A stretch of DNA of 64,000 bases from Escherichia coli (GTDB lineage Bacteria; Pseudomonadota; Gammaproteobacteria; Enterobacterales; Enterobacteriaceae), in assembly GCF_041886205.1 (NCBI RefSeq), contig NZ_CP169029.1; one strand, written 5' to 3'. This document shows positions 10,032 through 16,000 of this stretch, piece after piece. A program made the position numbers. Numbering within the stretch: the stretch's first letter is position 1; each line of letters begins with the position of its first letter.

Positions 10032-13000
10032 AAGGAAAAATCTTTTCCACCGCATTCTCATCATTCCCTGCCAGTGCCTTCAGTTGCTGACGGGTAATGC
10101 GGGTAAACACCACACCATACGCCCAGGCCAGGTTCAACCGTCCCTTATACTGACCGTCATTCTGCCGTAAGCACGGGTCTGCAGGTAAGGCATTAACCGT
10201 ATCACAGGCATAACGACGAACCTGCACCAGCGGATTTATTTCTGATTTCAGAATCCCGTCGGTTTCCAGCGTGACCTGCTCCTGGTTCGCCTTACGCAGC
10301 GTGGAAACCGTCCAGTCCTTAACCTCCAGAAATACCAGCCCGTTCTCCGGGTCAATAATGACAAAATCCGGATGCCGGTTTTTTCGTCCCACCGGAATAT
10401 CGTACCAGACAAGGCAGTCATCGTTCAGAAAGCGCTCCAGTCGTAAAGCCACCCTCCTCTCTCCGGGCGTCATTCTCTCCTCAGTGGACGCCGATACATT
10501 TATCAGTTTCGCCATAACACTCTCCTGCCACCCGATAAAAATATAACTGCCGGTATATTCCGTGCAGACAAAATATGTCGGATACTTTTTTTAAAACAGA
10601 CATAAATCCGGTTTCACAACAGGTGAAATCATCCGGACCAGCCCCCCTGGCCGGAAATTCACTGACTGAACGCGCCATAAATATCCGTGGCTTACACAGT
10701 AAAGCCACACCTGAATATTGTTAAATAACAGGCTCATAATCAAAATCACAAAAATATCTTTTCCATCCTGACTACCCTCACCAGGGCAGCCAGGATAAAA
10801 AATCAGACATGATAATAAGATGAATTGTCCACAAACTGCTGTTGCTTCAGATGGCGCAGCAACACCCTGCCCTCCGGCATAAATGTTGTTCCGTAACGAA
10901 CCAGTCCTGCGTCTTTAAGTTCTGCATCAATGACATAATGCAACTCACCTGGCTGAGTCTGTTCCGGCATCGTCACGTCGACGCGCTTAATACGTGGCTC
11001 ATACTTCAGCAGAACATCTGAAAGCACGCGCATCAGTTGATGCACCGTCCCCGGCATGCCCTGCAAAATGGTTGTCATATCCGGCAGCCCATAATCCGTT
11101 GTATCTGCTGAACATGACCGTAATTATTCCTGGTGTGGTGCCGCACTTCTTCGTAGGTGCAGCTGCAGGGGTATTCGGTAATGCAACGGGTGGACGTCGT
11201 GGTGCGATTTTGGGTGCCTTCGCTCAGGGCTTGCTTATTACCTTCCTGCCAGTATTCTTATTGCCGGTGCTGGGTGATATTGGTTTTGCTAACACCACCT
11301 TCAGTGATGCTGACTTTGGCGCACTGGGTATTTTGTTAGGGATTATCGTTCGCTAATACTTTGATGACATTAATATCCTCCAGGATTTCAGGAACGTGGA
11401 GGATATTAATTCCTCTTATTTTTTTCATTTTTCTTTCTTCCAGTCAGGACTGCATTTGATCAATCGCAAGCGCCCCGAGAAGTACGTAGCGTAAGGATTA
11501 TTTTACAGCTGAGAAGTTCCAGGGCAGCAGTTCATGCACACGGTTCGACGGCCAGTCATTGATCTTCACAATCACCTCGCGTAAAAAGCGGGGTAAGACT
11601 GCTCATCCAGCTCATCTCCACAGGTAATAATTCAACGCCAATGGCAGAAGAGGTCGTTACCGGAAGACGCCGCGAAACACGCCCTTCGTTCTGCCAGAGC
11701 CTGAGCCATTTGAAAATAACATTATCATTGACGCCATTTTCACGTGCAATCTGTGCAACACAAGCTCCAGGTTGTGATGCCAGTTCCACCATACGAAGTT
11801 TGAATTCATTCGAATAGTTTTTACGAGGTTCTTTTCGCCAGTCCTGTAATTCCATACTTAGATGTCCGTCTATATCAGATGGGCGTCTAAGTTACCAATT
11901 CTCGTCTGATGGCTACATACGGCGGTCAGTTTACGCTTACGGGTTATCTGTCTGGAGATTCAACTCTGTTTCCTCACAGGAGCTCTGTCATGGCTGATAA
12001 ATATACCGAAGCCGCTGTTGTGGGTGGCGTGGATACACATAAAGATCTGCACGTTGCTGCTGTCGTAGATGAGAACAATAAAGTCCTTGGGACCCGGTAT
12101 TTCTCCACAACACGACAAGGTTACCGGCAGATGCTGGCCTGGATGTAAGCGTACAGCGAGGGCCGTATTGACGGGGATGTGTTATTCAGCTGGCAGTGCT
12201 ATGCGCCACGGAAGCAGTTCGCTGACCCGGTTGACCGGCCAGTCTGCTATGATGCCAAACACATGGCGAAGGTAGCTTTCTGGATCCACGTCATTCAGTT
12301 TGCACGTCCCGATCAGGCTGTACAGTAGCGCTCCCCGCTCACCACCATGGTCAGAGCCGAAGAACAGGAAGTTTTTACGACCCAGACTGACCGCCCGCAG
12401 GGCATTTTCAGCGATGTTGTTGTCGATTTCCACCCAGCCATCGTTCGCATAGTACGTCAGTGCCGGCCACTGGTTAAGTGCGTACGCGAACGCCTTCGCC
12501 ACCATCAGGCTGGACAGGGGACTTTCACCCCCGAGCTGCTGAACATGCCCGGCACACAAAGAAGATCTCGGCTCAGTGGCCGGGATTAGTTATACAATTA
12601 TCTGATTGATTTTTAATATATCTTTTCTTAAATCATCGTTAATATCTGACGGTTCTAGCTGGTTTATAAGTTGCCTTATTTGGGTAAAGGTACTTTTCTG
12701 ATCTTTTAGATCTTCTCCTTTTATCGTTGATAAAGCTGCAATTAGTTCACCATCGTAATATTCACCCGCTAACGGCTCTTTAGTTAGAACTTCCAACACT
12801 CTTGGCATCAACTGATCAATACATAAATTTTGTCGGATAGCGCGGCAAAGATCTTCCACTGTTAACTTTTCAAGAGGCACATCTATGATACGTTCGAACC
12901 AGAGTTCAAGCGGTGATTGTTGCTCAGGCTCTTTTGTCATATTGATGTTTCCAATCAATTTACGTAAGGTAATCATATTCCATATCCTTTCAAGGCTGAT

Positions 13001-16000
13001 TCTATTTTATTAATAGCATCTGTTGCTCTGCCATACGCAGCCTGAGCTTCAGGATTGTTGACGTTTTTCAACGTATCCGCATGATTTCTTAATCCTCTGA
13101 GCGTATTTTGCATTTCCTGCATATGATCCCAATATCCTCCATTCTCTTTAGGAACTGGCTTACCATCCATATCCTTGAGAGTTCCAATAATATCATGATC
13201 TTTCAGAGCATTTTTTATAGTGTTATCGATCTTCTTAATCGCACTTTCTTGCTTCTGATTAAGCTTATCTACAGGTTTTTCATTTTGCTGCTTAGGATCA
13301 TTTTCCGATGGTGGTGGTGTACCGGTTCCTGAGCCGGAACCGCCCAGTTCTACTTTTTCCGCATCGGTCAGATCTTTACCGATATTCGGATTCGAGGCAG
13401 CCCCGGAACCGTACTTATCATGCAACGAACTGAGATACTTAGTAGTGATCTCATCATTACCCATCATTTGCAGGGTAATCAGATGCTCCAGTTCATCGGA
13501 GGTCATCCTGTCGGCCATATCCTTGACTGCCGCCCCGGCAAGCCCGGCCATGCCCGCTTTCGCCCCGATTTCTAGCAACTGCTCTGCAACTTTAGTCCTG
13601 CAAGGTGCTGCGACCGCACAGCCTCTGGCAACCAGACTCAGCGCATTATTCTCAACAACGTTCTTCCCGGCACCAGCTCCAGCAGCCGCGCCAGCCACAT
13701 CGCCACTGGCAATGCCGCCGGCCATACCCGCTGACAGCGTTGCCAGCGTGCTTACAGTTTGCTTCTGATCTTCACTGAGGTCTGACTGCTTCACGCCCGG
13801 ATACAGCATTCCGATCGCTCTGGCTGCCAGTTCTCCTGTTGCTGAGCCGACAAAGGCGCTATTTTTCTGTACCACCGACAGCGTGGCATTCACCACTGCA
13901 TGAGTTCATGTGGGACATCTGACGGACAAATTATTTCACAAATGTCCGCTTAACGCGCTCAGATACAATGAAATAGGGGATCCAAATACAGGCACTAAAC
14001 ACGTTACGTACCAATGGTTTTACCGTATCAAAAACATAAGGCACGTCTAAATAGATGTGGCCCAGCAGTAAATCGACAGCAACAAATATCGTTCCTATCC
14101 CAATAAGTGCAATATAGTGATGCGGCAATTGACGCTTTTTACGAAAAAACAAGCTACTAACGAAAATTCCATAAGAAAACATACCAATGAAAGCAAAGAG
14201 TTCAAAAAAGAGGATCCCTTTTTGTGCGTGACCGATCTGCGCAATATTTTCCATTAAGAATCGTATAGTGAAATTAATAGAGATCATATTGGCGAGAATT
14301 GTTAAAACCAGTCCTATTGCTGGCAAGTATAGCCAACCACGAATTTTTTTAAATTCGCGTTCTTCACAAACAGCGCAAAAGTCACTGTCCTTCAGTGCTT
14401 CATTCTCACATTGAATACAAAGTCTTATTTTCTTCTCTGCATCATGGCTCATCTGATAATCACCTATTATTTATACGGGAAAAGTTGAAGATCATGCTGT
14501 TTATTTTCGTCTGTATTGTCACCATTCAGCATATGACCCGGTCCCCGGGTACCATCGCGACTCGGATCACGTACAGCACACTGTTCCCGTGAACCTTCAC
14601 AACCACCACCGGTATCCAAGCTATTATCATTCCCGGTATCCTTACTGGCATTACCTGTAGCACCGGCTATTGCTGCTGCCGTATTAGCTGCTGTTTCAGT
14701 GGCTATCATATTCAGCATATTGTTTCCAGCAACTATCTTAAGTTCCAATTAATCATTTCTTTAGCAAGTTGGCAATCCATAACATTAAACCTGTAAAGCT
14801 ACCAATGTATATACCTATCTTACCTAAAAATAAAATAATGTTCGATGAAAAAGACACTGGTATTCCTTTATAAAAAAAGAAAAAAAATTCCCCGCATACA
14901 TATAAAATCGCCCCTGTTAGAAAAATTGAAACCATGCTGAATACAATAAAAAAAACAGAGGAAGAATGAATTTTAGAGCTTTCATTTGCCACCACCTTCC
15001 TGCTTCATTTTGTACTCTGTATACTTACCTCCGGCTTCTGAAGTGATACTACCACCAATGTCACCAATTGAGCTGGGGACATTGCTTGGTTTCATTTCTT
15101 TTGAGATTCCCAAATCTCCTTGGACTTCAGTAACACTTCTCAACTCAGAATTAAACTTCGGATCCCAACCACCTTTCCACCAGTTTGCCCCTGCATTAAC
15201 ACCCCATGAAAGTCCTTTACCAAGGCCATAGCCAATACCCGAACCGGTACCATTGATAAGTGCACCTGACAATGGATCTTTGTCGTCAATCCAGTTACCC
15301 AGTGCCCCTCCGGCAGCATTCCATCCAACGGTTCCTTTCCAGCCCTGCCCCATGGTGATTACATTGACCCATCCTGCAATGATTGCATTTTCAGGATCAA
15401 CTGAACTATCTACCATGTAACCAATTCCTGCATTTGCACCTGTGCCAAGAACCCACATGGCCTGAGCACCGCCAGGTAAGAAAGCTACACTACCAGTGGC
15501 CAACGCTCCGGCATACGCTTTATTGACTGCTTCTCCTCGCTTACAGGCTTCACCGGAAGGATTATCACTACAGGAGAGAACATCAGCGCCATGCTCTCTG
15601 GCTTTTTCCGTCTGGAGCCATTCACTGCCACCCAGCAGGTTATTCTCAACAACAACTCTTTCCGCCGCAGGTTGCTGTGATAAAAAAGTTTTCCCTGTGC
15701 TTTCAGCGCGTTAAAACCGCTTTGTCCTGCTATAATTCCGGCGCAACAACTTTTTGCCCTGACGCGCCCTTTCAGCCAGTTACACCATTTCCCCCAAATC
15801 TGTTAAAGAATAGCTCCCAACACACTATGACCATCATCCTTCCATGCAGTCATAGACAATATTCCATGGCGATAGCTTCTAATTATTCAGAGGATAAGCT
15901 TTTGAAAAATCATTGTACGTTTCATGAAGATGATAAAATTTTGCATCAGGGTCATTTTTCAGTTCTTCATATCTTTTCATCAGTTTTTTGAATAACCCCT

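Follow-up and report, generated by a model that had tools for sequence, protein, structure and literature searches.

A contact-dependent growth inhibition (CDI) locus is encoded on the minus strand of a 64-kb stretch of an Escherichia coli genome (assembly GCF_041886205.1, contig NZ_CP169029.1; hereafter the window). Downstream of its cdiBAI genes, and on the same strand, lies an array of orphan cdiA-CT/cdiI cassettes (12590-15710), that is, C-terminal toxin regions (CT) and immunity genes that stand apart from cdiA. We consider it highly probable that this array is silent and that it was formed by recombination rather than by local duplication, with the toxin tip formerly deployed by the locus being displaced by an incoming one. 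A preliminary description of this DNA had proposed an orphan array 3′ of cdiBAI, and all of the features that it described were found in place on the minus strand. When the six-frame translation of the window was scanned for VENN tetrapeptides, three were detected in total, all on the minus strand: one at 17363-17374 and two at 15639-15650 and 13645-13656, exactly where orphan VENN motifs had been expected (near 15639 and 13645). Two of the cassettes, those of the EC3006 and UPEC536 types, have already been characterised, and the exact arrangement of the locus occurs in no complete genome: among the 5426 complete E. coli genomes used for comparison, none (0/5426) covered at least 80% of positions 12400-16400.

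The mosaic structure of the locus carries this conclusion. Positions 33225-21996, which span the flank, cdiB, and at least the 5′ 1.4 kb of cdiA, are 99.05% identical to E. coli EC28, and within them 25400-24300 is 100% EC28-like and only about 50% similar to strain CFIAFB20190157. From 22020 downstream the sequence is about 99% CFIAFB-like, and identity to EC28 ranges from about 20 to 90% from one interval to the next (22020-20000). Overall, identity to CFIAFB20190157 amounts to 98.8% over 24354-13739 and 99.1% over 16400-13739. Beyond this block, the DNA is of the type found in uropathogenic E. coli 536 (UPEC536), with 99.0% identity over 13806-12144, 99.75% over 13773-12144, and homology to 536 ending at 12144. 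The segment 12144-13806 is also about 99% EC28-like, the annotated pseudogene of the insertion sequence (IS) family IS66 included. At the same chromosomal site, EC28 displays the flank, cdiB, a 536-type cdiA, cdiI, and an IS66 remnant.

The right-hand crossover could be located to within 5 nucleotides (nt). In a six-way alignment of the stub that follows the DUF2569 gene, positions 13934-13774 follow the o11-type sequence of strain VG35A2 at 66 of the 68 informative sites, and positions 13768-13631 follow 536 at all informative sites. The resulting interval, 13769-13773, lies inside a patch of about 60 nt that is conserved among pretoxin alleles. In strain SMBL, this patch contains another, independent crossover, located some tens of bases further downstream. 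Meanwhile, strain JML285 is 100% identical to the window over positions 1-10120, yet it possesses a different, degraded CDI locus.

We propose that the ancestor was a UPEC536/EC28-type locus that would have consisted of cdiB, a cdiA ending in the 536 tRNase tip, its cdiI, and the IS66 remnant. The middle and the 3′ part of this cdiA would then have been replaced by some 8.3-10 kb from a CFIAFB20190157-like locus, a segment that brought in the cdiA sequence from the receptor-binding region to the EC3006 tip, together with cdiI, the ionophore orphan, the truncated CT, the DUF2569 gene, and the o11-type stub. The left crossover would have occurred in conserved cdiA sequence, and the right one in the pretoxin patch of about 60 nt. 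Because the latter falls within the pretoxin coding region, the old 536 tip would have lost its connection to the part of cdiA that serves secretion and delivery, and this tip and its cdiI would now stand last in the array, accompanied by the old IS66 remnant. This mosaic agrees with a hypothesis already put forward for orphans, according to which they are ancestral toxin/immunity pairs that had to give way to incoming ones (PMC9086364).

The genes and fragments of the locus, including open reading frames (ORFs) with lengths in amino acids (aa), are:

26153-27919, minus strand: cdiB, the first gene of cdiBAI.
16361-26140, minus strand: resident cdiA, an ORF of 3259 aa with VENN at 17363-17374 and a CT of the EC3006 type.
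15879-16364, minus strand: resident cdiI, 161 aa, EC3006 type; its start overlaps the cdiA stop (ATGA).
15711-15878, minus strand: non-coding tail of the EC3006-type module, with stops in the frame of orphan 1 upstream of 15710.
14982-15710, minus strand: toxin of orphan 1 (o1), a start-less ORF with VENN at 15639-15650 and a CT of 222 aa.
14753-14995, minus strand: o1 immunity gene, a hydrophobic 80-aa ORF starting with GTG; frameshifted, with the canonical ATG at 14985.
14467-14748, minus strand: remnant of a third orphan, a 93-aa ORF with a degenerate VENN and the first 80 or so aa of a CT.
13931-14452, minus strand: gene of a DUF2569 membrane protein, 173 aa, with an N-terminal CxxC...CxxC and at least three hydrophobic segments.
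13774-13930, minus strand: 5′ part of orphan 2 (o2), a pretoxin remnant like the one that precedes CdiA-o11 in EC869-like arrays; GTG at 13896.
12973-13773, minus strand: 3′ part of o2, with UPEC536-type pretoxin (13657-13773), VENN (13645-13656), and CdiA-CT(UPEC536).
12973-13896, minus strand: the whole o2 ORF, 307 aa.
12590-12976, minus strand: cdiI(UPEC536), 128 aa, intact; its ATG overlaps the toxin stop (ATGA).
12182-12502, minus strand: remnant of an IS66-family transposase, also present after cdiI in E. coli 536 and EC28; it indicates where the 536-type locus formerly ended.

The cassette that would have been displaced is o2. From VENN to the C terminus (...ALKGYGI), its CT is identical at 226 of 227 positions to PDB 5J5V_B, described as 'tRNA nuclease CdiA' (E=4e-148), and the single substitution is T128P, counted from VENN. 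The GYGI tail is presumably the element through which CdiA-CT(UPEC536) binds CysK. The 128-aa CdiI is identical to the CdiI of 536 over its entire length (128/128 by tblastn; PDB 5J5V_C, E=1.2e-79). Judged by these sequences, o2 is the UPEC536 CysK-activated tRNase module itself. For the near-identical 536 proteins, toxicity of the CT and its neutralisation by the immunity protein are established (PDB 5J5V; PMC5562914). Besides the CT and CdiI, our locus shares with UPEC536 (PDB 5J5V, 5J43) the IS66 remnant downstream. In contrast to 536, the module is detached from cdiA here and is preceded by 84 pretoxin codons, the first 43 or so of which derive from the o11-type stub. The cassette had initially been described as a second start-less VENN ORF with a pretoxin remnant and a 128-aa putative immunity gene. 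Pretoxin remnant, VENN, CT, and cdiI are all present, but the ORF does possess a potential start, a GTG at 13896, 84 codons before VENN, at which no Shine-Dalgarno sequence is visible. The 536 module was detected in 209 of the 5426 complete genomes and is part of a large cdiA/filamentous haemagglutinin gene in 43 of 45 sampled rows; thus, its orphan state here is unusual.

Related rearrangements were observed in two other strains. In Z142-6 (locus L004, 5020-6100), the full-length cdiA ends in a group 6 ionophore tip. Behind it come a 536-type CT that is out of frame, its annotation being a 65-aa 'polymorphic toxin type 28' ORF, and a cdiI(536) that has remained intact, apparently a separate instance of a displaced 536 module. 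In CFIAFB20190157 (locus L001, 8509-9565, aligned to 13739-13930), the pretoxin stub behind the DUF2569 gene recurs, lacks VENN, and continues directly into the central part of a CT similar to the EC3006 entry domain (53% over 58 aa). Together with the two small ORFs behind it, this represents another rearranged orphan in the same slot.

The tip presently deployed by the resident cdiA belongs to the EC3006 type. From VENN to the stop codon, this CT is identical to PDB 6VEK_A (337/337), and its entry domain is matched by Pfam DUF6862. The resident CdiI matches PDB 6CP8_C and 6VEK_I (E=2e-106), and both tip and immunity protein are identical to the crystallised EC3006 proteins (PDB 6VEK, 6CP8). 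The identical CT suggests that the strain may be E. coli 3006 or related to it. The structure 6VEK represents CdiA-CT/CdiI of E. coli 3006, which combines a PtsG-dependent entry domain with a tRNA-Ile tRNase (PMC9424206). Positions 15748-17350 match the EC93 plasmid pCP127 at 92.4%, where the EC3006-type CT and cdiI are likewise accompanied by the tail 15748-15878. On pCP127 this module is an orphan, whereas here it is deployed on cdiA and lies outside the orphan array, which shows that the EC3006-type cassette alternates between deployed and orphan states across strains. The resident cdiA is a chimera, too, being EC28/536-like in its 5′ third and CFIAFB-like from about codon 1373, near the receptor-binding region. 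Because the type of cdiA switches around this region, recombination probably changed the specificity for the target receptor along with the toxin.

The first orphan displays a different kind of toxin. Its ORF opens directly after the stop at 15710 and has no start codon before VENN. Only about 15 nt of it are derived from a pretoxin, and homology to other arrays begins at 15665 or 15653. Glycine makes up 19% of the CT as a whole and 23% of a 110-residue core, which also contains 8% Trp. The CT carries a glycine zipper, an overlapping G-x3-G-x3-G run (GTGSGIGYGLGKGLSWGVNAG, CT residues 134-154), in which G134, G140, and G144 are invariant in 48 homologues. No Pfam match was obtained for this CT, nor any NCBIfam match in a scan of all eight proteins of the locus. 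A weak match to the ionophore CT of EC93 (E=2e-5) aligns zipper on zipper. CDI ionophores are described as having a glycine zipper, two α-helical domains (one for entry, the other a five-helix bundle), and very hydrophobic immunity proteins, 72-100 aa in length, that form a two-helix hairpin (Halvorsen et al. 2024, PMC11630599). A search for homologues of o1 yielded 246 at E<=1e-10; this result, like the E values of the o2 matches, goes well beyond what chance could produce. The best 120 of these were all short (156-422 aa), being orphan-like or partial ORFs, and none among them was a full-length cdiA with the exact o1 ionophore allele. Residues 20-165 of o1, the entry region, share 86% identity with WP_088459632.1, a full-length CdiA (3246 aa) from strain Z142-6. 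The S1 Appendix and S1 Table of PMC11630599 place this protein in a block that is labelled group 6 and belongs to VREC0506, itself a listed member of the group; the toxins of this group enter the membrane via DtpA/DtpB (PMC11630599). We therefore regard o1 as a putative CDI ionophore with a group 6-type entry region, an assignment made indirectly by homology. The AlphaFold2 model of the o1 CT (48-sequence alignment) is mostly helical, with 8 helices, and its mean pLDDT of 42 and pTM of 0.30 are too low for fold assignment.

With the group 6 ionophores (CT-M15, VREC0506), o1 shares a VENN-delimited CT starting VENNLLGGSEW, as in the M15 primer sequences, as well as the glycine zipper, the similar entry region, and a small immunity protein with two transmembrane (TM) segments (77 aa in intact alleles). 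It differs from them in its C-terminal ionophore part and immunity protein, which represent a distinct allele, and in that the immunity gene is frameshifted. In the S4 Table of PMC11630599, the primers 'TMC005-mid-for' (VENNLLGGSEW) and 'M15-mid-for' (VENNSLAHVL) appear to be interchanged when compared with the Nco-for primers for these strains. The labels of the mid primers for M15 and TMC005 clash with those of the Nco/Xho primers; hence, primer names alone are unreliable for deciding between group 5 and group 6. The possibility that o1 is CdiA-CTo10(EC869), a SecY-dependent group 2 ionophore, was also considered. The idea arose from the closest copy of o1 (93% aa identity), which lies just upstream of DUF2569 and CdiA-o11 in VG35A2. 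It was rejected because the primer sequence of the cdiI-o10 start (ATGAAGTTGATAAATCCATTAAAAATAAATAAG, S4 Table of PMC11630599) was matched neither in the window nor in 19 comparison loci when up to 3 mismatches were allowed, and because the immunity proteins differ, that of o1 starting with MKALKFILPLFF.

The o1 ionophore and its immunity protein probably constitute a separate cognate pair. The canonical start of cdiI, an ATG at 14985, overlaps with the stop codon of the toxin (ATGA); in VG35A2 and ZYB39, the gene has the same start and encodes 77 aa. In the window, the tract at 14948-14955 contains eight T residues (T8) in place of the nine (T9) of these intact alleles, as a result of which the canonical frame stops after 22 codons. 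The 80-aa ORF restarts at an upstream GTG in another frame and retains both predicted TM helices. The immunity protein has two hydrophobic segments, and its C-terminal TM segment is 45% identical to CdiI-EC93. Of eight complete genomes with this allele, six have T8 and two have T9. The 77-aa in-frame protein was found on 258 contigs, and the 80-aa form of the window is absent from a collection of 15 billion proteins. The initial proposal of a start-less VENN ORF overlapped by an 80-aa multi-TM protein thus holds as far as an ionophore-type CT with a two-TM immunity protein is concerned, but the immunity gene is frameshifted by the T8 tract and may be inactive.

Between the two orphans lie a toxin remnant and the DUF2569 gene. 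The remnant, a 93-aa ORF, had been taken for a displaced internal segment of CdiA. This is not the case: it is a truncated post-VENN CT comprising about the first 80 residues. It starts at a degenerate VENN, VAGNN at 14719-14733 (AGNN at 14719-14730), and is 93-96% identical to the part after (V/A)ENN of the full-length CdiA of SMBL and of an orphan of VG35A2, in both of which the full CT is paired with a DUF596 immunity gene. Here it breaks off at ...HDLQLFPYK*, 14 nt before the DUF2569 start, and no immunity gene follows. The tail of the remnant is also repeated upstream of DUF2569 in SMBL.

The 173-aa protein, which had been proposed to be a zinc-ribbon membrane protein, was confirmed by its match to Pfam DUF2569 (PF10754, E=1.4e-28, positions 2-143 of the 143 of the model). 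Copies with 95-100% identity are present in the arrays of CFIAFB20190157, VG35A2, SMBL, and EC93 pCP127. A second allele, 36% identical, was found in JML285 and OkiPb01677 (L010 11032-11526; L016 5349-5843), and in these two strains a VENN-CT ORF overlaps the 3′ end of the DUF2569 gene. In E. coli, Kosakonia, and Yokenella, homologues with 36-77% identity are found at a conserved chromosomal site, in the company of ABC-transporter permease genes, an FBPase gene, and a Mur-ligase gene. A Serratia homologue adjoins rpoD/dnaG, and one Photorhabdus homologue has an ambiguous context. We rejected DUF2569 as an immunity protein, since its homologues occur at this housekeeping-type locus or by rpoD/dnaG and not beside toxins. 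A single mention of DUF2569 was retrieved from the literature, and it was unrelated. The gene of the array is probably captured cargo, i.e., a hitchhiker.

In the surroundings of the array, N-terminal fragments of IS3-like and IS110-like ORFs lie beyond the IS66-family fragment, and the IS remnants together span 11556-12148 and 12182-12559. Large helicase/nuclease-like ORFs (8728-10515 and 29621-32215) border the CDI island. Relatives of the flanking ORFs are annotated as DEAD/DEAH box helicase, 3′-5′ exonuclease, and ankyrin-repeat protein, and these may be defence-island genes.

Regarding function, orphan toxins are known to be without initiation signals, the orphan cdiI of EC93 is expressed and protective, and orphan toxins work when fused at VENN (PMC3150448). 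We infer that the orphan toxins of the present locus are not deployed, because they are without start codon or Shine-Dalgarno sequence and without the 300-kDa delivery part. By analogy with EC93, cdiI(536), if transcribed by read-through, would plausibly protect against 536-type neighbours. It is unlikely that the whole array, cdiI(536) included, is pure genetic debris that is unexpressed, confers nothing, and is decaying. The absence of start signals for the toxins, the frameshift in the o1 cdiI, the truncation of one CT without an immunity gene, the IS66 and IS110 remnants that adjoin the array, and a promoter signal not above background would all fit such decay. However, cdiI(536) is 100% conserved, and its ATG is intact and overlaps the stop codon of the toxin; only one residue of the o2 CT is substituted, and the reading frame of the o1 CT is intact across 222 codons. 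Such conservation could also merely stem from the event being recent. In addition, expression and protection have been demonstrated for the orphan cdiI of EC93 (PMC3150448), and immunity to a toxin as common as the 536 type (209/5426 genomes) would be useful.

Several points weigh against a silent array formed by displacement of the old tip. The left crossover is only bracketed, to about 23730-22050, because the informative sites in this interval are mixed. EC28 and CFIAFB20190157 are not the true parents, and the proposed direction of the event is read from flank identity only. In principle, translation of o2 could start from the GTG at 13896. A promoter/terminator scan of 12100-17500 was uninformative, as it returned 11 sites against 11 expected from shuffling. 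Finally, the T8 state of the o1 immunity gene may reflect decay into a pseudogene, phase variation, or an error in sequencing the homopolymer.

The array had also been regarded as a reservoir of cassettes that could be swapped onto cdiA by recombination at the conserved pretoxin/VENN sequence. An active reservoir of this kind, whose cassettes recombine with the cdiA of the strain itself and thereby change the deployed toxin, would follow the general model of Poole et al. 2011 (PMC3150448); for the present locus, we deem it quite unlikely. Part of the idea stands. Recombination at the pretoxin patch has occurred, and the chimeric junction of o2 (13769-13773) and the SMBL crossover mark the patch as a recombination site. 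Moreover, the similarity of the orphans to cdiA 3′ regions is real: the o2 pretoxin at 13646-13773 is 100% identical, over these 128 nt, to the full-length cdiA of another strain, Z142-6, and it likewise matches the cdiA of 536 (99.75%). The resident cdiA, in contrast, does not offer a matching site. The proposed alignment of the orphan pretoxin/VENN regions with its 3′ end was carried out at the nucleotide level (blastn, word size 7) and revealed no usable homology, as nothing was obtained below E=0.5. The longest exact matches to the resident cdiA measured 11 nt for o1 and 12 nt for o2, both being the VENN codons, and 14 nt for the remnant, at an unrelated position of cdiA. The 84-codon pretoxin of o2 and the resident pretoxin display 55% nucleotide identity. 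Efficient RecA recombination needs about 20-30 nt of identity. With no usable homology, RecA-type swapping onto the strain's own cdiA is therefore unlikely. Furthermore, o1 holds only its short pretoxin sequence of about 15 nt, and its swap would deploy a toxin with a frameshifted immunity gene. The orphans could recombine with other cdiA alleles bearing a matching pretoxin, and this would be the only way for the cassettes to return to service, given that the strain's own cdiA does not match. On the full-length cdiA of other strains, the o2 CT, the o1 entry region (Z142-6), and the remnant (SMBL) are all present; the exact o1 allele was absent from full-length cdiA among the best 120 homologues.

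It is very unlikely that DUF2569 is a functional part of the array, as an accessory or immunity-like protein for membrane-acting toxins, or, as a separate matter, that T8/T9 constitutes a slipped-strand switch of immunity. DUF2569 does recur between ionophore modules in many arrays, one allele lying between an ionophore immunity gene and a VENN-CT; against a toxin-related role stand the genomic contexts of its homologues. That the assembly artificially joined two CDI loci, belonging to one genome or to a mixed sample, at shared pretoxin and cdiA repeats is hardly credible. Both junctions do lie in sequence common to cdiA alleles, where assemblers can mis-join, and no complete genome has the same arrangement. 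However, the 99% identity to 536/EC28 that flanks the mosaic on either side at a single chromosomal site is what a real replacement would leave behind; natural chimeras of a similar kind are present in finished genomes (SMBL, and Z142-6 with its truncated 536 orphan), and no second cdiA is present within the 64 kb.

Orphan toxin/immunity arrays are established in CDI and Rhs loci, and two of the three intact cassettes described here have published structures and activities. What this locus adds is a worked example in which both junctions are preserved, showing how a deployed 536 tip becomes an orphan, and these junctions are direct sequence evidence for the hypothesis of displaced ancestral toxins. 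The locus also advises caution against treating every array as a ready switching reservoir, considering that homology between the orphans and cdiA is missing here and that one immunity gene is frameshifted. The strain is predicted to possess immunity to neighbours of the 536 type, its own attack relying on a tRNase of the EC3006 type.

The systems most similar to this array are the orphan modules of EC93 (o1) and EC869 (o1-o11) (PMC3150448). As in those strains, the modules lie directly downstream of cdiBAI, each with a small immunity gene, and the toxin fragments start at or near VENN without initiation signals. In these arrays too, the modules are identical to CTs found on full-length cdiA elsewhere, and IS remnants and VENN-less or truncated pieces are interspersed. 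The 5′ stub of o2 is identical in kind to the remnant that precedes CdiA-o11 in EC869-like arrays such as that of VG35A2. The content differs from that of EC93 and EC869, as the present locus combines an EC3006 tip, a group 6 ionophore, a truncated CT, DUF2569, and a genuine UPEC536 module as an orphan. Unlike arrays in which the orphans share upstream homology with cdiA, the orphans here have essentially no nucleotide homology with the resident cdiA. Such upstream homology to the adjacent cdiA, which many arrays possess and on which the switching model is founded, is absent in some of the published arrays as well (PMC3150448), so its absence is compatible with membership in the class. Its cassettes are either already characterised or members of a described family, and the locus as a whole is typical of the class of orphan cdiA-CT/cdiI modules (Poole et al. 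2011).

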